Shown: in pieces, positions 265 through 57,863 of the stretch
Layout of the letters: each line of letters begins with the position of its first letter
How positions within the stretch are numbered: the stretch's first letter is position 1
NCBI GenBank assembly: GCA_951406725.2
Contig: OX597836.1
Span: forward strand, 9,548,001-9,612,000
Source: Octopus vulgaris
Lineage: Eukaryota
Reading direction: 5' to 3'
Length of the DNA: 64,000 nucleotides
Notes under the pieces: model-generated
The model's database searches: none
Seen by the model: only the letters and a program-made list of their open reading frames with translations
What the model was told of the DNA's origin: nothing
Made by a program: the position numbers and the translations under genes

Positions 265-672
265 GGCGTAGGAATGGCTGTGTGGTAAGTAGCTTGCTTA
301 CGAACTACATGGTTCCGGGTTCAGTCCCACTGCGTGGGACCTTGGGCAAGTGTCTTCCACTATAGCCTCGGGCCGACCAAAGCCTTGTGAGTGGATTTGG
401 TAGACGAAAACTGAAGGAAGCCCATCATGTGTGTATATATATATGTATGTGCGTGTATATGTTTGTGTGTCTGTGTTTGTCCCCCCAACATCGCTTGACA
501 ACCGATGGTAGTGTGTTTACGTCTCCGTAACTTAGCGGTTCAGCAAAAGAGACCAATAGAATAAGTACTAGGCTTACAATGAATAAGTCCTGGGGTCGAT
601 TTGCTTGACTAAAGGCGGTGCCCCAGCATGGCCACAGTCAAATGACTGAAACAAGTAAAAGAGCAAAAGAGT
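265..672 (+). mobile_element. tRNA-derived octopus-type SINE (representative full copy)
   Basis: A/B-box-like head (tggctgtgtggtaag...ggttcagtccc), internal microsatellite, tail aaacaagtaaaagag. Other copies at ~8005-8375(-), 9665-10065(-), 12215-12635(-), 18425-18842(+), 25035-25408(-), 30940-31342(+), 31555-31965(+), 36385-36778(-), 38562-38993(+), 44090-44430(+) and 45775-46025(+). Confidence 0.85.
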
Positions 673-839
673 ATAGAAATTCTAGTTGCTGATAGTTGAT
701 ATTAGAAAACAGGAATACCATCACAAACGAAGTATTTTGGGTTAGAAATAAGTTGCAGATATCCCCAGACTACGGTGAACATACATTTTCGTTCAAATAT
801 TTATTTACCAGACATCTCTGAATCAAAATATACAGGATA

Positions 840-9175: not shown

Positions 9176-10543
9176 CTGTGGGTGCTTTTTTTTATGTGCC
9201 ACCAGTACGGGGGGCCAGTCAGGCAGCACTGGCAACGACCATACTTGCATGGTGCTTTTTATGTGCTACCAGTATGGGGGCCTGTCAGGCAGCACTGGCA
9301 ACAACCATACTCGCATGGTGCTTTTTATGTGCCACCAGTACGGGGGGCCAGTCAGGCAGCACTGGCAACGACCATACTCGCATGGTGCTTTTTATGTATC
9401 ACCGGCACAGGAGCCAGTCTGGTGGGACTGGCACCAACCACACTCAAATGGTGCTTTTTACATGCCACCAGCACTGGCATCATGATTTCACTATATTCTT
9501 AATTAAATTCAGTGGCAGCTTGATCTAGTGTAATCTTTATAGCCAGGGATCTATAGATTACAATGTTAGTCTAACACTGAAGGTCATGGATGGAACCATA
9601 CAATACTCTTCACCACAGAAGGTACTTAGTTGGGCTGTAAGTATTGAAGGAGGTTTTTATCTACTTACTCTTTTACTTGTTTCAGTCATTTGACTGCGGC
9701 CATGCTGGAGCACCGCCTTTAGTCGATCAAATCGACCCCGGGACTTATTCTTTGTAAGCCCAGTACTTATTCTATCGGTCTCTTTTGCCGAACCGCTAAG
9801 TGACGGGGACGCAAACACACCAGCATCGGTTGTCAAGTAATGCTAGGGGGACAAATACAGACACACAAACTCCCCCCCCCCCACATATATATATACATAT
9901 ATACGACGGGCTTCTTTCAGTTTCCGTCTACCAAATCCACTCACAAGGCATTGGTCGGCCCGGGGCCATAGCAGAAGACACTTGCCCGAGATGCCACGCA
10001 GTGGGACTGAACCCGGAACCATGTGGTTGGTTAGCAAGCTACTTACCACACAGCCACTCCTGCGCCTTTGTTTATCAATTTCCATTTTAGGAATGAATAC
10101 AAAATAGAGACAACTGACACGTTTACCTTTCCTTTGGAGATGTTTATCGTTAAATAAATAATACCAAGACTTTTTAGAAAACCTGTATTTGGATGTATTT
10201 TTTTTTGTTTTGTTTTGTTTTTGCTAAATTTGTACCTTAGAGGTGTCAGGACAATAGGCTCTAGAAATCATGTTTCATATATACATGTATATATGAAACA
10301 CTGTAGAAACACTGCCAGATCAGACTGGGCCTGATGCAGCCTTCTGGCTTCACAGACCCCAGTTGAACCGTCCAACCCATGCTAGCATGGAAAACGAACG
10401 CTAAATGATGATGATGATGATTGTGTGTGTAGTAAAATGTTGCACAGAATGAAGATGAAGGGACATATAGAAAGCATGGGGACATGCTCATTCCACAGCA
10501 ATTATCAACCAAAAATTCTCATCATTTTGATGCCATGTATGTA

Positions 10544-18393: not shown

Positions 18394-18428
<35 letters not shown>

Positions 18429-18588
18429 GGCTGTGTGGTAAGTAGCTTGCTAACCAACCACATGGTTGTGGGTTCAGTCCCACTGCGTGGCATCTTGGGC
18501 AAGTGCCTTCTGCTATAGCCCTGGGCCGACCAATGCCTTGTGAGTGGATTTGGTAGACGGAAACTGAAAGAAGCCTGTCGTATATATG

Positions 18589-18620
<32 letters not shown>

Positions 18621-19188
18621 GGGGGGGGAGTTTGTGTGTCTGTGTTTGTCCCCCCTAGCATTGCTTGACAACCGATGCTGGTGTGTTTACGTCCCCATCA
18701 CTTAGCGGTTCGGCAAAAGAGACTGATAGAATAAGTACTAGGCTTACAAAGAATAAGTCCCAGGGTCGATTTGCTCGACTAAAGGCGGTGCTCCAGCATG
18801 GCCGCAGTCAAATGGCTGAAACAAGTAAAAGAGTAAAAGAGAATATATAATGTACACAGTATAAGATAAGAGCTATTAATAGTTTCTTGCTGTGAAGACA
18901 CATGGTTAAGTAGGTTTTTATACCTTGCCTTGTGTCTCCAAGCAGCCTACAGACTCTGAGCATATGGTCTGTTCTATTTGAAAACCAGTATGGTGGTACA
19001 TGAGAAATGACAAGAAAAAACAGAAAACAAAACAGGGTTGATGCAAAAGGTGAAAAGGTGAATAAAAACAGAAAAAGAAAAAAAAAGAAAATTAGAGTTA
19101 TGTCCCCTTTGACCATAGAACCCATAATTAATCTAGTTGTTGTAGAATAATTCAATAGAAAAGGGTCCAAAGTCTGTGAGACAGCTGC

Positions 19189-23602: not shown

Positions 23603-24289
23603 GTAAATGGCATATTTTTTCCCCTCTTTATTTCTCTCTCTCATATTCCATCTTTTTATTATGGAAAATGTTCAACATTTTCAAATCTGACCCATTCTAT
23701 AACTAAACGGGTCACAGAAATAACATTCAAAAACCTCTCATCTTTTTTTTAATGTATCTAGGTTAAGTTAATTGTCTGTGTGGAACACAACCCTATCTGT
23801 TTTTATGTATCTAGGTATTTAGGCCAGAGGTTCTCAACCTTTGCCGTGTGGCGAACCAGTAGAAAAAAATTTTCACCTCCCCAACTCTGTAATTAATATT
23901 ATATTATGAAAAGTCAATGTCTGATGATAATTTCTATTTTTACGTTACGGAAGAGCCATTCTGGCAATTTATTAACAAACAAATGGGTTGAACTTACTTT
24001 TTGAATTTAAGTTCATGAGTTCCTGTCGAGCTGTGTCGGTGACTGGGTCATCATTGTGTGGTGAGAATTTTGACAACTCGTGAAATAAATTTAAAACGAA
24101 TTTAGTAGCCTTGTGTTTTAAATGACCGGAGCCAACAAAAGCCCAGGGTCGATAGATAGAACCTGAAAGAAGCCTGTTCTGTGTGTTCATGTTTGTTTTT
24201 ATGTCCAATTATAATAAAAGCGGAGATGTACTTGCATAGCAAGTAACCTGATCTGAGATCGTGTGCTGGAACCAAAACAATTGCAGCAT

Positions 24290-24745
24290 ATAATAATAAT
24301 GAAATTATTGTATACAGTGCTCAGGTGCACCACAACTTGTCAGAGTATATGCAGTAATGTACAAATGTCTGGAAAGCGAACAATGTATGAATCAGATACA
24401 TGCTTGCATGTGTATGGAGGGGAGGAAATCAGGTGTAGTGTTCGCGAATCTCAGAAAGCATGGAAGTTTTGAAGGATGCAGTGCTCCGACAACTAACAAC
24501 TGATGCTGGCAGTTTGTTCCATGCTTCAGCAATTCTTAGCGTGAAAAAATGTTTTCTGATTTTGTAAATATGTCCACGGGTGTTAGACAGGTGGAGTTTG
24601 AAAAGGTGCTCAGAGTTATTGTTTGTAAGATGGTGGATAATTTTATGGGTGTCTGCCAAGTCAGCTGCCAGACGTCGGAGTTTCAATGTGTCCATGCCCA
24701 GGGAAGTAAGGCGTTCAGAATATGGCAAATGCCTGATGGAATTCC
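24290..24745 (-). mobile_element. CR1-like LINE 3' fragment embedded in a palindromic ribozyme element
   Basis: LPYSERLTSLGMDTLKLRRLAADL...WNKLP and an (ATT)n tail; same family as 32800-33290. Confidence 0.82.
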
Positions 24746-24760
24746 GTGCTACACGGAATT

Positions 24761-24810
24761 TTGTCGGTGAACAGGTCACGATCTCAAAGCGACGAAAATA
24801 TTTCGACAAA
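24761..24810 (+). ncRNA. Hammerhead-like ribozyme, G3-C8 variant
   Basis: UUGUCG GUGAACAG GUCAC gaucucaaa GCGAC GAAAAUAUUU CGACAA; compensatory G-C in stem I and one stem II mismatch. Confidence 0.58.
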
Positions 24811-24972
24811 TTAAATTTAAATGTTGAAGTGAATCTAACGGTTTTTGTGTGTTTCTTAAATGGCTTATAAACACCTTCCACGCTGCAATTATAATAAAAG
24901 CAATTTTACATTAATCCTGATGGGTTTACTCTAAACTTTTGAAGAATACAAATGACTGAAGGGGGTCAACCC

Positions 24973-30600: not shown

Positions 30601-32426
30601 GCTATATGCACAAGGCGTGAAACTTCAGGGGTGGGCACTAGTCGATTACGTTGATCCCAGTGTGTAAGTCGTATTTTATTTTATTGACCCCCAAAAAGAT
30701 GAAAGGCAAAGTCAACCTCAGCAGAATCTGAACTCAGAACGTAAGGACAGATGAAATGCCACTAAGCATTTTGCCTGGCATGCTAACGATTCTGTCAGCT
30801 GACCTCCTTACATAAAAATGATAATATTAATTATCAGCTTTTGACTTACTGCAAAGAAAAAGTGTGAATGTACATTGAACAATTAGAAAAATAAACTGTT
30901 AACAGTAACAATAATCACAATTGTAAACATAGAATTCAACAGGAGTGGCTATGTGGTAAGTAGCTTGCTAACCAGACACATGGTTCCGGGTTCAGTCCCA
31001 CTGCGTGGCATCTTGGGCAAGTGTCTTCTGCTATAGCCTCGGGCCGACCAAAGCCTTGTGAGTGGATTTGGTAGACGGAAACTGAAAGAAGCCTGTCGTA
31101 TATATGTATATATATGTGTATATGTGTGTATGTGTGTGTGTTTGTGTTTGTCCCTCTAGCATCGCTTGACAACCGGTGCTGGTATGTTTACGTCCCCGTC
31201 ACTTAGCGGTTCGGCAAAAGAGACCGATAGAATAAGTACTGGGCTTACAAAGAATAAGTCTTGGGGTCGATTTGCTCGACTAAAGACACTGCTCCAGCAT
31301 GGCCGCAGTCAAATGACTGAAACAAGTAAAAGAGTAAAAGAGAGTAACTTTGTTCTTGCTTCTTGTTTATAACTTTTATCAAAACATGGAATGTTCTTTC
31401 TGATTCCAATCTGTTGCTCTACATGTGGATTCAGTTGATTCCTAGATTATTTTGTCTGAATCCAGATTCACAGAAGTACCTCATTGCAAATGGGATGAGG
31501 ATTCGGTTCTTCGTCAAAATGTTTTAACGCTTTGGCGTTGAAATTGCTCTGTCATAGGCATAGGAGTGGCTGTGTGGTAAGTAGCTTGCTTACGAACCAC
31601 ATGGTTCCGAGTTCAGTCCCGCTGCGTGGCACCTTGGGCAAGTGTCTTCTACTATAGCCTCAGGTTGACCAAAGCCTTGTGAGTGGATATGGTAGACGAA
31701 AACTGAAAGAAGCCCGTCGTATATATGTGTATATATATATATGTGTATGTATGTATGTGTGTGTGTGGGTGTATGTTTGTGTGACTGTGTTTGTCTCCCC
31801 AACATCACTTGACAACCGATGCTGGTGTGTTTACTTAGCAGTTTGGCAAAACAGACCGATAGAATAAGTACTAGGCATCCAAAGAATAAGTCCTGGGGTT
31901 GTTTTGCTCGACTAAAGGCAGTGCTCCAGCATGGCTGCAGTCAAATGACTAAAACAAGTAAAAGAGTAGTAGTAGCAGCAGCAGCCGTCCAAGAATTTGG
32001 ACCTGGAGATCTCCATTTCCAGCGATTGAGGGCCACCTCCCAGTGGTGTCAAGCGTCAACGAAGAGCCCTCGACTACAACAAGATGACCAAAGTTTTTTG
32101 GGTTTTTTTCCCCAAGGTCTGGGGTCTCCCGCCCCTAAGCCCTAGACCATCACCTAATCACCTTTACACCCCGTCTTGTTGCTTAACAACAACAATAACA
32201 GCAGCAGCAGCATAAGCAGCAGTATTAATAGTAGTCACAGTAGACGGGGGTCTTTGATTTCACTGAACCAATCAAGAATGTAGATTTAAAGTTGTTAGTA
32301 TTTGTCAGAGAAGCAATGACTAGAAAAGTGAATTTGTTACATAATGAAAAAAAAATACTGTAAATAATTCGATAAGAATCAGTCATGTAGGAAGTAGTAA
32401 AAAAAAACAGAACCTTTCTATTTCAG

Positions 32427-35180: not shown

Positions 35181-36897
35181 GTGGTCCTTTGCTATTCGTA
35201 AGACCCACAGAAGAGAAAGCAGGTCAACCCCCGACACCGAGAGCATCGACGGATGGATGAATGCACATCCAGGCTCAGCGGTTGCGTAGGAAGTCGGGGA
35301 CAAGAAACAGGAAGAAAGAGTGAGAGAAAGTTGGGGTGAAAGAGTACAACAGGGGTTGCCACCACCCCCTGCTGGAGCCTTGGGGAGCTTTAGGTGTTTT
35401 CGCTCAATAAACACACACAACGCCCGGTCTGGGAATCGAAACCGCGAGTCGGCTGCCCTAACTAATGGGCCATTGCGCCTCCACTGTTGTCCATGCTGAC
35501 ATGGTTTAGATAGTTTGAATGGAACTAGTTAGCCAGAGAACTGTTAAAAAAGCAAAGTCATTGGACTGTGACCATACTGGAGCACCAGTTTGAAGGATTT
35601 AATTGGATGAATCAACCTTTTGAACCTGATGCTTATTCTATTGATCTTTTTGTTGAACTGCTAAGTTATAGTGACATAAACAAACCAACTCTGATTGTCA
35701 AGTGGCGGAAGGGATAAACACACACATACACACAAAAGAGGCCAATAAAATATGTACCAGGCTTTTTAAAAAATGATGTACTAGGGTCAATACATTCAAA
35801 CTAAAAATTCTTCAAGGCGGTGCCCCAGCATGGCTGCAGCCTGGTGACTGGGCCAAGTAAAAGATAAAAGAAATATATATTTATACATGTGACGTACATG
35901 ACTCAATAGGTCTCTGTATAGTGACCCGCTGTGCTTGAGGAAACCTATTGAGTCAAGTACATCAACATCAAAATAAGAATCAAATGGAAATTCTAGTTAT
36001 GATACCCGTGCCGGTGGCACGTAAAGAGCACCATCTGAATGTGGCAAATGTCAGCGCCGCCTGGCTGGCGTCCGTGTCGGTGACACGTAAAAAGCACCAA
36101 CCGATCGTGGCCGTTTGCCAGCCTCTTCTGGCCGCTTACGAAGGGCATCCAGCTGTAGAAACACTGCCAGATCAGACTGGAGCCTGGTGGAGCCTCCTGG
36201 CTTCCTAGACCCTGGTTGAGCTGTCCAGCCCATGCTAGCATGGAAAGCAGACATGATGATGACAGGCTTTGGTTGGCGTAGGAATATAGTGGAAGACACT
36301 TGCCCAAGGTGCGTTGCAGTGGGACTGAACCTGGAACTGTGTAGTTGGAAAGCAAACTTCTTATCATGCAGTCATGCCTGCATATTACTCCTTTATTTGT
36401 TTCAGTCATTTGACTGCGGCCATGCTGGAGCACCGCCTTTAGTCGAGCAAATTGACCCCTGGACTTATTCTTTGGAAGCCTAGTACTTATTCTATCGGTC
36501 TCTTTTGATGAACCGCTAAGTTACAAGGACGTAAACACGCCAGCATCGGTTGTCAAGCGATGTTGGGGGGACAAACATATACACACACTTACATACATAT
36601 ATATACATATATATGATGGGCTTCTTTCAGTTTCCGTCTACCAAATCCACTCACAAGGCATTGGTTGGCCCGAGGCTGTAGTAGAAGACACTTGCTCAAG
36701 GTGCCATGCAGTGGGACTGAACCCAGAACCATGTGGTTGGTAAGCAAGCTACTTACCACACGGCCACTCCGGCACCTATATTAGACCAATTTTCTTGTAT
36801 TAGATGCTGTAAAGTTTTTCTCTGTTTTACCAAATTCCAAACCAGTGTTCCTGAATCTAAAGTTGTTATTTTCGTTTCCTTTTCTATTTTTCTGCAG

Positions 36898-37419
36898 GTT
36901 GCACGTTTAGAGGATGGTGGCAGTGTGTATGGCAGTAATGAATCTATTCACAAAGTCCTAATGGAAACTCGGGAACAACTGTCAGGCAACGGTGTACAGT
37001 CCAATGTCTCCATTCTCAGTGAGCTCGAGTCACAGTACTACGCTCTATGTCAAAAATACGAGTCTCTCCTGCAGCACAAGTTGCGGAGACCTCGATCAGG
37101 TACAGACTTTGATGAAGATGAAGCCGACAGGAATTTCCGTGTTTCGCACAAGGAAGTGCAGACCCTCCTTGTAAACCTGCATCGCTGTGTCGAGGTGAAT
37201 ACAGACGTTGGAGACTCCACGACAAGCCCACCACCTTATCGGTCCCTTTTCAAAGACATCTTTGCCACCCTGCGCAAGTCTCGAATCGAAGAGTCCCCAG
37301 AACAGCAGCCGGCGCCCACTGCAAATCAGGGCTCACAGCAATCAAAATCAGCCACTGGAACACCGATAACCACTCCCATAACAGAAGACAACCCAATGAC
37401 AAAGAGCGCTCATGCATGA
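36898..37419 (+). CDS. CDR2: CDR2-like terminal coding exon (to TGA)
   Basis: Acceptor ttttctgcag. Contains SILSELESQYYALCQKYESLL, SHKEVQT and SPPPYRSLFKDIFATLRKSR, which match CDR2 C-terminal motifs SLLHEVDTQYSALKVKYEELL, SHKAVQT and PPEYKALFKEIF (recalled). Confidence 0.92.
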   Translation, partial: VARLEDGGSVYGSNESIHKVLMETREQLSGNGVQSNVSILSELESQYYALCQKYESLLQHKLRRPRSGTDFDEDEADRNFRVSHKEVQTLLVNLHRCVEVNTDVGDSTTSPPPYRSLFKDIFATLRKSRIEESPEQQPAPTANQGSQQSKSATGTPITTPITEDNPMTKSAHA

Positions 37420-48125: not shown

Positions 48126-48127
<2 letters not shown>

Positions 48128-48471
48128 TTGCAGCGTGGAAGGTGTTTATAAGCCATTTAAGAAACACACAAAAGCCGTTTGATTCACTTCAACATTTAAG
48201 TTCAATTTGTCAAAATATTTTCGTCGCTAAAATCCGCGACCTGTTCACTGACAAAAATCCGTGCACGGGATGCAGCACGGACTTTTGTCAGTGAACAGGT
48301 CGCGGATTTTATCGCCGAAAATATTTTGACAAATTGAACTTAAATGTTGAAGTGAATCGAACGGCTTTTGTGTGTTTCTTAAATGGCTTATAAACACCTT
48401 CCACGCTGCAATTGTTTTCGTTTCGGCACACGATCTCAGATCAAATTACTTGCTATGCGAGTACATCTCCG
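48126..48471 (+). mobile_element. Short palindromic non-coding element (Penelope pLTR-like) with two opposed hammerhead-like motifs
   Basis: ~140-bp inverted arms (48126-48264 / 48275-48413) plus a unique ~58-bp tail. Related copies at 56908-57227 and 24222-24890. Confidence 0.8.
48206..48255 (-). ncRNA. Minimal type I hammerhead-like ribozyme, G3-C8 core variant
   Basis: UUUGUCA GUGAACAG GUCGC ggauuuua GCGAC GAAAAUAUUU UGACAAA: stem I UUUGUCA/UGACAAA, stem II GUCGC/GCGAC, palindromic stem III AAUAUU. Confidence 0.65.
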
Positions 48472-48473
48472 TA

Positions 48474-48546
<73 letters not shown>

Positions 48547-50570: not shown

Positions 50571-51740
50571 TCACAACCATTTTTTTTGCCAGATGGCAGA
50601 AAATTTTTCTTTGTTGATTTGTTTTATTTTTGTATATCTAAAATAAAACACTTTGTTGTCTTTTTGGCTCATCATCATAGCATTTTCACCAAAACCACTT
50701 CGGCTTATTATCAACGTATCACATTCACTCAGAATATATTGGTCCAAAAACGCCTTCCTTACACCATCACACTTGTTTTTCATCTCCTTACGTGGCCGAT
50801 CCATATGCATTATTCCCCCTGATGTGTACACAATTTGAGGAGAAAATTTTTTAAAAGCTATCGCCTGTACCACTTCTGAGTCTGTTGTCACAAATATTTT
50901 GTACTTGCTTGTGTTGTACTTATTTAACAAGTTCCAAACAATCTGAATACTTGACATTGAATTCCTTGGGGGATCTCTTGGAACACTAGGGTTCTGTCCC
51001 ATTCGAATCTGAGCACACACCAGATGTATATCTGGCCTGGGGATATTGACTTCAAAGAATTTGTCAAATTTTTCCTGTAAATGATCGCTGAAGCGAAACA
51101 ATAAATTCATCATTTTAGCAAATAAATTTCCATATGACATTTTTGATGCCCAATGCAGTTGTTCTTTGTAGCGAGGATTCCGTTTCAAGGCATGAAAATA
51201 GATTCGATTTGTTGTCACATAGAGGACATCTTCAGGGTAAAGCATTTCTAAGTCTGCTGATTGTAAAGAGGAAATGTACGTATTGTTGTCAACCAAATGA
51301 AGGCGACGACTTCTTAGGCCATGCAACTCTTTTGGGTCAATTGTCCAGTTAATTTTGTTTGGTTGAAAATAATTAGTAAAATTACAAAGTCTTGAAATAA
51401 TGATGCCAAAACGACGACCCATGGCCTGTGCCATTAAATATATAGAAATTATTCCATGCTGTCTATCTCCCCAACCTCCACAACCTCTATGATCAACACA
51501 GTAAAAAATAATATATTTAGTTTTGTTGTTTAACTGAACCAATTCCTGTTTCTCTTTGCTTACAGTTTTCTTATTTATATGATGCACTTGATTATTTGGA
51601 AATACCTTAGAATTATTTATAAACTTTTGGTTGTGTTTGTTTAATGTTGTCACTGTATATTCTTTATTCGCAGAATATTGCTTCCAGGCAAACAGTAGAA
51701 AGAAGCTGCTGACCACAGCAATGAATCCAAGAACTCGAAT
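50571..51740 (-). CDS. Type II membrane O-/alpha-1,6-type (GT-B fold) fucosyltransferase-like protein, large terminal exon
   Basis: 1170-nt open exon after the - strand acceptor tttttatcatttctag. It begins with the hydrophobic anchor IRVLGFIAVVSSFFLLFAW. Motifs GGWGDR, VCAQIRMG, IFVTTDS and DQYILSECDTLIISRSGFG correspond to the conserved alpha2/alpha6/O-fucosyltransferase motifs. The exon carrying the start codon was not located. Confidence 0.85.
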   Translation of the reverse strand: MRVLGFIAVVSSFFLLFAWKQYSANKEYTVTTLNKHNQKFINNSKVFPNNQVHHINKKTVSKEKQELVQLNNKTKYIIFYCVDHRGCGGWGDRQHGIISIYLMAQAMGRRFGIIISRLCNFTNYFQPNKINWTIDPKELHGLRSRRLHLVDNNTYISSLQSADLEMLYPEDVLYVTTNRIYFHALKRNPRYKEQLHWASKMSYGNLFAKMMNLLFRFSDHLQEKFDKFFEVNIPRPDIHLVCAQIRMGQNPSVPRDPPRNSMSSIQIVWNLLNKYNTSKYKIFVTTDSEVVQAIAFKKFSPQIVYTSGGIMHMDRPRKEMKNKCDGVRKAFLDQYILSECDTLIISRSGFGENAMMMSQKDNKVFYFRYTKIKQINKEKFSAIWQKKWL

Positions 51741-54995: not shown

Positions 54996-55318
54996 CATGC
55001 ATGCATGTATGTATGTATGTATGTATGTATGTATGTATGTATGTATGTATGTATGTATGTATGTATGTATGTATGTATGTATGAATGTATGTATGTATGT
55101 ATGTATGTATGTATGTATGTATGTATGTACTTTATTATTAAAGCTGCAAATGTATAAAAATTTTCGCAAAAATCTGCTACTCAGAGTTTAATGTTCCTAT
55201 TCGTTGGACGGTTTCAATTGAGAATGTGTGTGTTTGTGTGTGTGTGTGTGTATTTCTGTGTGTGTGTGTGTGTGTGTGTGTATTTGTGTGCGTGTGTGTG
55301 TGTGTGTATGTATGTATA

Positions 55319-55379
<61 letters not shown>

Positions 55380-55757
55380 CTCTTATTATAAAAGGCAGAT
55401 TTTTATCTGCCTCCCTTTGGGAGTTATACAAATCTACAATATAGGATTTCTTCAATTACAATTTACCTAGCAATTTTAAGAGTACAATGCATCGCGTCAT
55501 GCCAGGTCCAGTTTTTAAAATTTAAACTCCAATTAAGCAAAATTTACAGAAAACTCACATTCTGGTGTGTGTGTCAAATGCTTTTCTTAGTCTGGTTTAC
55601 ACCACACGCAAACGCACACACACAGTGGGCAGCGAATAAAATGAAAGTAATTTACTTACTGTAGTGAGTGATTCTTTCACTCTGCCTCCCACTTCCTCTT
55701 TCAACACAGACACGCAAATATATAAATAAAATTGTAAGCTAACGTGCGTGTGTGTGA

Positions 55758-55793
<36 letters not shown>

Positions 55794-55801
55794 GTGTGAG
55801 G

Positions 55802-55832
<31 letters not shown>

Positions 55833-55887
55833 CGTGTGCGCGAGTGTGTGACAGGAAAGTTTTTTACGACGAATATAAGTAGCAGAA

Positions 55888-56581
55888 AGATAAGACAGTA
55901 AGGTGTGATTTGAGGGAGATTTGGCTGCTATTTCTACCATGTCTAGCTGCCATGTAGGGGTCTCTCTCATAGGCTCATACATACATATATACATAGATAA
56001 GACAGTAAGGTGTGATTTGGGGGAAATTTGGCTGCTATTTCTACCAGGTCTAGCTGCCATGTAGGGGTCTCCCTCATAGGCTCATACATACATATATACA
56101 TAGATAAGACAGTAAGGTGTGATTTGGGGGAAATTTGGCTGCTATTTCTACCAGGTCTAGCTGCCATGTAGGGGTCTCCCTCATAGGCTCATACATACAT
56201 ATATACATAGATAAGACAGTAAGGTGTGATTTGGGGGAAATTTGGCTGCTATTTCTACCAGGTCTAGCTGCCATGTAGGGGTCTCCCTCATAGGCTCATA
56301 CATACATATATACATAGATAAGACAGTAAGGTGTGATTTGGGGGAAATTTGGCTGCTATTTCTACCAGGTCTAGCTGCCATGTAGGGGTCTCCCTCATAG
56401 GCTCATACATACATATATACATAGATAAGACAGTAAGGTGTGATTTGGGGGAAATTTGGCTGCTATTTCTACCAGGTCTAGCTACCATGTAGAGGTCCCC
56501 CTCATTGGCTCATATATATATACATACATAAGACAGTAAGGTGTGATTTGAGGGAGATTTGGCTGCTGTTTCTACCAGGTC
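55888..56581. repeat. 107-bp tandem repeat, ~6.5 copies
   Basis: Identical internal units; ORF-track starts recur every 107 bp. Confidence 0.95.
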
Positions 56582-56907
56582 TGTTAGGCCTTCTCATGTA
56601 AACTCAAGCTTTCTTATGCCTTGAACATAAGACCAAAGCAGAGAATGTATTCTTTTATTCTTCTGCTTTTTCCAGCCATTGGTCTGTGGCCATGCTGGGG
56701 CAATGCCTTGAAGAATTGTAGGTTAATGAATCAACTCCAGTTTTATTTTTGTAAGCATTGTACTTATTCTATCTGTTTCCACTAGGTGACAGGGATGTAA
56801 ACAAACCAACATTCGTTGTCAAGCAGTGGTGGAGGACAATCACAAGCACAGACACGCACACACACACACATACATGCATACATATATATATATGTGTGTA
56901 TATATAT

Positions 56908-57227
56908 ATTGCAGCGTGGAAGGTGTTTGTAAGCCATTTAAGAAACACACAAAAACCGTTACATTCACTTCAACATTTAAATTTCATTTGCCAAAATATT
57001 TTCGTCGCTTTGAGACCGCGACCTGTTCACTGACAAAAATATCGTGCTAACAGGTAGCGGTCTCAAAGCGACGAAAATATTTTGACAAATTAAATTTAAA
57101 TGTTGAAGTGAATCTAACGGTTTTTGTGTGTTTCTTAAATGGCTTATAAACACCTTCAACGCTGCAACTGTTTTCGTTCCAGCACACGATCTCAGATCAA
57201 GTCACTTGCTATGCAAGTACATCTCTG
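56908..57227 (+). mobile_element. Palindromic pLTR-like element, same family as 48126-48471
   Basis: Inverted arms attgcagcgtggaagg... / ...caccttcaacgctgcaa and the same tail gcacacgatctcagatcaagtcacttgctatgcaagtacatctc. Confidence 0.8.
56987..57037 (-). ncRNA. Hammerhead-like ribozyme, G3-C8 variant
   Basis: UUUGUCA GUGAACAG GUCGC ggucucaaa GCGAC GAAAAUAUUU UGGCAAA; the stem I change retains a G-U pair. Confidence 0.62.
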
Positions 57228-57240
57228 TAACTATTTATAC

Positions 57241-57278
<38 letters not shown>

Positions 57279-57341
57279 TGTTAAAAACAGTAAGATAACA
57301 AAAGAAAGAAAGAGACCTCAATATTATGTAAATAGAGGAAA

Positions 57342-57736
57342 TCTTTATATATAAAAGTGAGGTTGTGTGTCTGTCTCCTACGATTTAGATTCCTAACTAC
57401 TCCCACATTTTGCGGTGCAGTTTAACCAAAAGCGGGTATCTTATAGTCGTGATTCATATCGAGACCGTCTGGGTATTAGCGCGCGTCTACGATGAGTCTA
57501 CGATTTAAAAAAAAAATTACCATCAATTTTTCCCATTTTTAATCCATTTTTGACATATATAAGGGAAGTAACTCTCTAAAATTTATTATTAAATCTCAGA
57601 ACGTAAAAAGCTACAGTAACACCCCTCCCCCTTTGTGGTTAGCCATATTGAGATGGCTATTATACTTTACATCTCTAAAAATGCTTATATAATTATTTCC
57701 CTTACAAACCCGAGCAACGCCGGGCGATACTGCTAG
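57342..57736 (+). mobile_element. Non-autonomous Helitron, different 5' body with shared 3' end
   Basis: Starts A|TCTTTATATATAAA; ends cccgagcaacgccgggcgatactgCTAG|T. Confidence 0.78.
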
Positions 57737-57863
57737 TATATATATATATATGAAAGAAAATGTGAAAATGCAATTTTAAAAGGTTTGACTTTTTTAGAAA
57801 AAGATTGTCAAAAGTAAAATGTAAAAGCTTACGTTATTCTGTTTTATATAATTCACATTTTTT

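Follow-up and report, generated by a model that had tools for sequence, protein, structure and literature searches.

This stretch of the Octopus vulgaris genome raises a question in two parts: whether the ~345-bp palindrome repeated along it is a mobile element in its own right or a piece of something larger, and whether the hammerhead-like motif carried on its arms represents a genuine ribozyme fold. A first-pass annotation had described the palindrome as a non-coding element bearing back-to-back hammerhead ribozymes, with the conserved 3-8 pair of the catalytic core swapped from C3-G8 to G3-C8.

Palindromic copies in the window

Working through the window (the whole 64,000-nucleotide stretch that was analysed), we see all three of the copies originally reported, each at its expected location, and recover the inverted arms and the tail (Table 1). 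The 48-kb copy is built from two inverted arms of ~145 bp each plus a ~58-nt tail, with (TA)n runs on either side. Its motif reads stem I – GTGAACAG – stem II – GAAA – ATAT – TT – stem I, and the three stem I pairings listed by the annotation (GTCA/TGAC, GTCG/CGAC and GTCA/TGGC) are all present. The number of motifs had been overstated, however: the window holds four complete GTGAACAG...GAAAATAT cores rather than the six implied by one in each arm, and the ‘back-to-back’ arrangement applies to the 48-kb copy but not to those at 24 and 57 kb. The plus-strand motif of the 48-kb copy carries two private substitutions, which break two of its five stem II pairs.

In the 24-kb copy most of the tail-bearing arm has been lost and a LINE-like 3' fragment stands in its place; this fragment, on the minus strand and ending in (ATT)n, we take from its motif to be of CR1/L2 type. 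The hammerhead core of this copy (at 24767, plus strand) lies in the tail-less arm. The 57-kb copy is a passenger within a larger amplified repeat, the flanks being common to eight other sampled loci. The repeat contains 107-bp tandem units and finishes in a short hairpin plus CTAG, presumably a Helitron-like 3' end.

Elsewhere in the window, an intact frame of 389 aa, whose N-terminus contains a hydrophobic stretch and which weakly matches NodZ (E 0.16), is, as judged from its sequence, likely to be a glycosyltransferase-like host gene. A 232-aa frame has the appearance of a coiled-coil host exon, with no significant match in Pfam. A SINE-like repeat is present in many copies and both orientations, alongside tandem arrays with periods of 34, 48, 61, 62 and 107 bp.

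Table 1. Features of the window, numbered from its first nucleotide
Position	Strand	Feature	Remark
48126..48474		Palindromic copy at 48 kb	
48126..48265	-	Tail-less arm; PLE head copy ending at the inner fixed site (ORF codon ~10-11)	
48206..48255	-	Predicted hammerhead (minimal, type I), undamaged	G3-C8 core 48248-48242; predicted cleavage after 48213
48266..48269	.	Head-to-head arm junction, insertion-specific	25 distinct centres in 30 copies
48269..48474	+	Arm with tail, equal to the PLE 5' head: ORF start preceded by 5' UTR and a 5' end inferred to be capped	
48284..48333	+	Second predicted hammerhead, stem II damaged	Core 48291-48297; predicted cleavage after 48326
48383..48474	+	ATG and first ~30 codons of the RT/GIY-YIG ORF	Tandem junction L213/L208 in frame
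48416..48474	+	‘Tail’ bounded by the two fixed end sites (where reverse transcription is inferred to start)	
24221..24890	-	Second insertion, opposite orientation	~13-bp target duplication
24221..24287		Tail of 24-kb copy	
~24291..24740	-	LINE-like fragment within 24-kb copy	
~24741..24890		Tail-less arm of 24-kb copy	
56908..57230	+	Third copy, older subfamily	Intact core from 57030 (-); other core truncated
~55300..57750		Larger amplified repeat	Contains third copy
50571..51740	-	389-aa frame	
36721..37419	+	232-aa frame	
270..684; 9665..10062; 18423..18854; 30941..31355; others	both	SINE-like repeat	

The unit is the 5' head of an autonomous Penelope-like element

The repeated unit of ~206 nt is the 5' head (a pLTR plus tail) of an autonomous Penelope-like element (PLE) that encodes a reverse transcriptase (RT) and a GIY-YIG endonuclease, and not the separate, non-autonomous, retrozyme-like family first proposed; the autonomous carrier of the pLTR, which the annotation had suggested looking for, does exist. 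At one locus (L147) a pair of motifs lies 2.5 kb apart with a fragment of a GIY-YIG ORF between them. Among the 30 loci that best match the GIY-YIG protein of L147, 28 have the unit in the same orientation 905–1,218 nt beyond the end of the ORF, at 93–100% identity; of the other two, one has no unit within the flank examined and one was scored on an inverted copy. The head thus follows the 3' UTR of RT/GIY-YIG copies, and in tandems it leads into the ORF itself, the tail running in frame across the junction (e.g. L212, L213, L224 and L229). With an ATG at unit position ~116, the outer arm and tail correspond to codons 1–30, an assignment that overturns the description of the palindrome as non-coding; this ORF start also aligns with the N-terminus of the ORF of a sister family (see below). 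A pattern search extending the tail did not reveal this junction: it returned 36 matches, and the 30 examined had no common continuation.

The most complete coding information comes from a 1,000-aa open frame (L197) with DKS, GGAIG, YVDD, CX3CxxC and GIY-YIG motifs and a match to PF01541 (E 1.6e-5). This protein has 105 database relatives, with RVT_1 matched by 3 of 15 aligned members; its identity as an RT is indicated by the YVDD/GGAIG motifs, by these RVT_1-matching homologues and by weak similarity to the RT of a co-resident PLE (E 2e-9). Searched as a single sequence, protein P0002 matched neither RVT_1 nor any PDB chain, and a profile search returned two weak matches to bacterial RTs. 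We found no uninterrupted full-length copy of the G3-C8 PLE family; in the junction copy L213/L208 the frame meets a stop after 129 codons.

Taken as a whole, the element has the anatomy of an endonuclease-bearing (EN+) PLE: an ORF in which the RT precedes the GIY-YIG endonuclease, partial tandem arrangements and 5'-truncated inverted copies that give rise to its pLTRs, a tail, present at one end, whose sequence comes from the ORF start, and short target duplications of variable length at AT-rich or (TA)n targets. This agrees with the published plan of PLEs, where the ORF already begins within the pLTR and tail (PMC3846280, PMC8557442, in the portions available). The mobile element is a PLE of ordinary plan, belonging to a class already known, and nothing indicates a host function. 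A 2026 repeat annotation of O. vulgaris lists 31 recently active PLE families (PMC13282606), whose library may include the G3-C8 family; the main text of that study makes no mention of hammerheads or ribozymes.

Among the other PLEs of this genome, two stand out. A sister family, ~55% identical across RT and endonuclease, retains an intact ORF of 1,309 aa; its insertions end at homologous codons and have formed short inverted pairs too. Many near-identical, intact ORFs of ~1,310 aa with an Asn-rich insert were seen in this family (L235–L269, e.g. L240), and its intact 1,309-aa ORFs offer material for biochemistry. The second, a two-ORF PLE encoding a 781-aa protein, was considered as partner for the unit and rejected, having no DNA similarity to it and a hammerhead of its own with a U3-A8 pair. 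This two-ORF element (L061–L066, e.g. C16:20834000-20843000) is very abundant and apparently young; its overlapping ORFs encode up to 479 aa and then the 781-aa RT–GIY-YIG protein, its direct pLTRs are ~450–500 bp long, its U3-A8 hammerhead has a palindromic CATG, and its 3' region bears repeated ATTGG/TGACGTC promoter-like motifs.

Short heads are abundant across the genome

The genome-wide collection of copies that the annotation called for yielded 1,946 candidates from a search of the 2.8-Gb O. vulgaris genome with the unit (40 were scored, all near full length and 94–100% identical) and 5,107 exact matches to the core pattern, against none for the reversed control; the motif occurs far beyond chance frequency. 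The 5' region of the ORF, by comparison, has 24 matches genome-wide.

Such an excess of short copies over ORF starts (5,107 matches versus 24) raises the issue of whether the heads also sustain themselves, as a SINE-like family of solo pLTRs with an internal promoter mobilised in trans. PLE promoters do lie in pLTRs, according to the part of PMC6765202 available, and a few palindrome centres recur. Set against this, short heads are 97–100% identical to the heads of ORF-bearing copies, centres are mostly unique, and the mRNA of the element itself has this head at its 5' end, so that no separate master is needed. We consider a self-sustaining family rather unlikely, although it is compatible with the PLE origin argued for above.

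Heads have also expanded locally. One locus (L226) contains at least eight tail-less heads in a tandem array with (TA)n between them, and at others (L073–L075) PLE heads are multiplied as 260-bp tandem units; these arrays represent a possible route from PLE heads towards retrozyme-like satellites.

Arm ends and junctions suggest two cDNAs joined at insertion

The outer ends of the arms fall at two fixed places. Counting arms that stop at the end of the tail against those that stop ~58 nt earlier gave 30/30, 36/21, 39/30 and 21/17 in four samples, with five arms ending elsewhere. Two-arm copies have one arm of each type, in short and long insertions alike, and the tail-less arm ends at unit position 138–152 in both. 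We sampled 100 short copies (30 by similarity, 26 by a non-TA flank pattern and 44 by position), of which 66 are two-armed, 28 have the tail arm only and 6 are without it. Among the 94 tail-bearing copies, 23 have target duplications of 6–15 bp (16 of these being 11–13 bp), 49 sit in (TA)n-type repeats and 22 have no target duplication that we could find. Arm junctions vary: the 30 copies compared have 25 distinct palindrome centres, the commonest occurring in four. The common plan of the ends, the variable junctions and the predominance of 11–13-bp duplications together suggest that the palindrome forms at insertion, probably from two cDNAs; given the recurrent centres, whole palindromes may occasionally have been copied as well.

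Long inverted arms might equally bring to mind a DNA transposon of the MITE type, and at one locus (L059) the outer arm and tail lie inside a repeat bounded by terminal inverted repeats (TIRs). That case proves to be a truncated PLE head nested in an unrelated repeat. The tail makes the ends asymmetric, the length of the target duplications is not constant, numerous copies have a single arm or a truncated 5' end, and an RT/GIY-YIG ORF is attached to the unit; symmetric TIRs with target duplications of fixed length were not what we found, and we attach almost no credence to a MITE. The repeat that holds the nested head at L059, ~330 bp long with short terminal inverted repeats in (TA)n (L059/L097, positions 930–1370), was observed in at least 40 copies at 85–90% identity. 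A non-LTR retrozyme, expected as head-to-tail, non-coding units delimited by cleavage, is likewise a poor description of units that are head-to-head or solo and contain the start of an ORF.

The inverted arm could instead be made by fold-back self-priming of a single cDNA, or from an antisense template, as has been proposed for rotifer Penelope elements (a model discussed in PMC3846280, in the part available). The two arms of one copy do differ less from each other than arms of separate copies do (2.4% versus 5.2%), and the centres of two copies (L007 and L009) resemble a short snap-back at the capped end. Yet in 4 of 13 long two-arm insertions (L176, L197, L199 and L206; L208, a tandem, being left out) the tail arm is the shorter, and so could not be a product of copying the tail-less arm; some copies combine arms of different subfamilies; and just 4 of 42 singleton variants are mirrored on the other arm. 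Fold-back as a general route is already contradicted by these data, and we regard it as improbable.

Whether the two cDNAs come from one RNA or two is a finer point. Across 100 short pairs, 27 of 518 diagnostic sites differ between arms, compared with 35% under random pairing, and nine of the discordant pairs are a single passenger event. Three copies (L089, L125 and L139) have arms that differ in the multi-base type of loop II that marks subfamilies; as read from their sequences, these provide modest evidence for two RNA templates. Arms being usually concordant, a two-RNA origin is argued for by few cases, with ectopic gene conversion as the alternative.

The 5' end suggests a capped and mostly uncleaved RNA

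At their other end, 85 of 125 arms start within the first 20 nt of the unit, with 3 of 125 starting within 3 nt of the predicted cleavage site; the RNAs that insert would thus be mostly uncleaved. AGATG is preceded directly by G in 42 of 54 short contexts (including 9 of 13 solo copies) and in none of 21 contexts joined to a 3' UTR, where the base is C or T. Reverse transcriptases can copy the m7G cap as an extra base, and the simplest reading of the additional G would be a copied cap. Since the genomic template does not contain the G of the short copies, the RNA is best interpreted as a capped Pol II transcript beginning at the A of AGATG. Alternatively, the TAG/CAG upstream of ATGCAG might be a 3' splice site, marking a spliced form instead of a start site. 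In contigs of four runs presumed to be RNA, which are blind to starts, ends and strand, the head is far deeper than the ORF and no splice joint is seen; none of our conclusions draws on these contigs.

A predicted hammerhead with a natural G3-C8 core

The annotation identified the motif as a minimal hammerhead of the kind found in PLEs, with a G3-C8 swap, a reading that is strengthened by our finding of C3-G8 homologues in related families. When the head is folded alone, stems I and II form in the minimum-energy structure. The layout is that of a three-way junction of type I, with U4 G5 A6, G12 A13 A14, A15.1-U16.1 and H17 in place, a bulge at 9/10.1, a G10.1-C11.1 pair and a palindromic stem III; the 3-8 pair is Watson-Crick, although G-C here and C-G in related families, departing from the canonical C3 and G8. 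Rfam scans of both the whole window and the head alone return no hammerhead, which we attribute to G3 and C8; the prediction that searches built on CUGANGA would overlook this family thus extends to Rfam.

A C3-G8 version of the pattern has 5,562 matches in the O. vulgaris genome against 21 for its control. They come from the sister family, where the motif occupies an equivalent position ahead of the ATG, and from no fewer than three further sequence types (L272/L279/L285, L276 and L298), some with ORF-start-like sequence. Of the 12 pairs in an alignment of ten motifs, 5 have changed at both positions: the 3-8 pair itself (CG in six, GC in three, GG in one), the 15.2-16.2 pair, two pairs of stem I and one of stem II. 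In total 90% of cells are paired in register against 21–46% when slid, a comparison not to be taken as a probability because the rows were hand-picked and are related. The annotation had drawn its structural argument from variation among copies; stem changes within the family prove to be weak evidence, and the strong covariation comes from related families. With homologous C3-G8 motifs and covarying stems, G3-C8 is best explained as a natural compensatory swap, and a natural G3-C8 hammerhead is, at the level of a fold deduced from sequence, well supported. One genome holds a G3-C8 family, C3-G8 relatives and a U3-A8 family. A looser G3-C8 pattern aimed at other families gave mostly chance matches (2,542 versus 1,747 for the control) and was set aside; none of the six loci followed from it has a convincing hammerhead.

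Variants within the family hint at how the swap arose. There are 409 matches with G3 but lacking C8 and 229 lacking G3; hand counts of the first 100 listed of each gave G8 in 35, T8 in 48 and A8 in 17 of the former, and C3·C8 in 11 of the latter, which extrapolates to ~140 G3·G8 motifs against ~25 for the strand-symmetric change. Classified by subfamily, 26 G3·G8 arms divide into 20 old, 4 middle, 2 unclear and none from the youngest; other mismatched states are concentrated in old copies too. At loci with two cores, G8 is mirrored in 2 of 4 cases compared with 0 of 13 for other substitutions. A G3·G8 lineage may be suspected of having amplified and, with C3-G8 outgroups, of having possibly been an intermediate before G3-C8.

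Does the motif cleave? It could be a structural relic, retained for binding protein or for dimerising RNA. The mostly uncleaved inserted RNAs (3 of 125 arms starting near the site) and the apparent amplification of G3·G8 copies would fit such a role, as would the predicted stability of the AAUAUU dimer helix, just -0.2 kcal/mol. The very active sister family mostly carries A9C at a normally invariant position of the core and has spread with it, so hammerhead activity may be weak or dispensable in the clade; hammerhead mutations, moreover, did not stop insertion by an anole PLE in vitro (PMC11167929, in the part available). Conversely, restoration of a Watson-Crick 3-8 pair and conservation of U4, G5, A6, A9, G12–A15, U16 and H17 fit selection on the geometry of an active site. 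On balance we think a relic somewhat unlikely, and lean towards measurable cleavage by the predicted hammerhead. Self-cleavage of transcripts in either direction, as first envisaged, is a different matter: the whole palindrome folds as one ~145-bp hairpin of -240 kcal/mol, so that a read-through transcript would hide both cores, and the same few arms start near the cleavage site.

A model for formation of the palindrome

Combining these observations, we hold with considerable confidence that the unit is the 5' head of an autonomous PLE, that two cDNAs are probably assembled into the palindrome as insertion takes place, and that the head contains a predicted G3-C8 hammerhead. In our model, a capped Pol II RNA would start at the A of AGATG. 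The endonuclease would make staggered nicks ~12 bp apart in AT-rich DNA, by analogy with the anole Poseidon element in vitro, and both nicked target strands would serve as primers for reverse transcription, which would begin at two fixed internal positions of the RNA, near codon ~30 for one strand and near codon ~10 for its partner, as the same analogy suggests. Where priming takes place on the head at the 5' end, both cDNAs would run off within ~200 nt and join head-to-head, producing the ~345-bp palindrome. The long inverted forms would result where priming uses the head's 3' copy instead. The two cDNAs may derive from two RNA molecules. The candidate hammerhead would be slow, assisted by dimerisation or protein, and mostly uncleaved in the RNAs that insert.

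A bolder version, which we think fairly improbable, has an active G3-C8 hammerhead reached through a G3·G8 intermediate that survives as an old subfamily. The PLE bearing it would insert as a particle of two RNAs, its transcripts possibly paired via the palindromic stem III of the ribozyme, copied from the two fixed sites on opposite strands of the target and then linked head-to-head. Such a particle, if real, would explain the inverted pLTRs and tails seen across PLEs.

Comparison with known systems

The octopus element resembles EN+ PLEs with inverted pLTRs and a tail (Penelope/Poseidon, Neptune and Nematis; PMC8557442 and PMC3846280, as far as their available text goes). Common to both are a single ORF with the RT followed by a C-terminal GIY-YIG domain and a CX3CxxC linker, partial tandems, inverted 5'-truncated copies, an ORF-start tail at one end, (TA)n targets and short target duplications. 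The octopus tail, at ~58 nt, is longer than the 30–40 nt published, head-only palindromes are very abundant, and DKS replaces DKG; the G3-C8 PLE is only ~20% identical to the co-resident 781-aa PLE. How PLEs come by their inverted pLTRs and tails is presented as an open question in the literature available, and the fixed outer ends, independent arm lengths, occasional mixed-subfamily arms and cap-like G of thousands of short octopus insertions make a two-cDNA, two-site model testable.

The closest mechanistic parallel is the Anolis Poseidon element PAc (PMC11167929, available in part), for which Frangieh et al. described nicking and extension of both strands in vitro, with reverse transcription starting at two internal sites that bracket the tail and with uncleaved RNA as template. 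Merging these results into a two-cDNA model is our inference. The octopus copies likewise indicate two internal start sites within the ORF start, an uncleaved template and a hammerhead near the ORF start, and a protein dimer is predicted; in contrast to PAc, the octopus hammerhead is confined to the 5' UTR, ~55 nt ahead of the ATG, and the evidence is genomic where that for PAc is biochemical.

In architecture the motif matches the minimal hammerheads of PLEs, in which a 9/10.1 bulge and a palindromic stem III are typical (PMC4209133, in part): both are of type I, with this bulge, G10.1-C11.1, a short palindromic stem III and an NUH cleavage site. They differ in the bulged base, G in octopus and H in the published minimal consensus, and in the core, the natural variant described in the available text being U3-A8 (PMC4209133, PMC3088659). 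G3-C8 is natural in octopus but an engineered double mutant in PAc, where the C3G/G8C change partly rescues activity (PMC11167929); partial rescue by engineered G3-C8 is also reported in the portions available of PMC8495972 and PMC3884650. Within the searchable running text of the literature we found no natural G3-C8 hammerhead, although an earlier description may exist; in the part of the Cervera supplement available, none of nine GUGA strings is one.

Non-LTR retrozymes (bioRxiv 10.64898/2026.07.22.740005, in part) are similar in being short, hammerhead-bearing and related to PLE pLTRs, but form head-to-tail tandems delimited by cleavage; octopus units occur singly or head-to-head, their start lies ~58 nt upstream of the predicted cleavage site, and they still belong to a coding element. 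In these octopus heads, thousands of natural copies have fixed a base pair that the sources available otherwise describe as an engineered rescue mutation. Natural G3-C8 alongside C3-G8 and U3-A8 means that hammerheads are undercounted when search descriptors are based on CUGANGA, and it opens to study a compensatory change that a catalytic core has undergone naturally in two steps.
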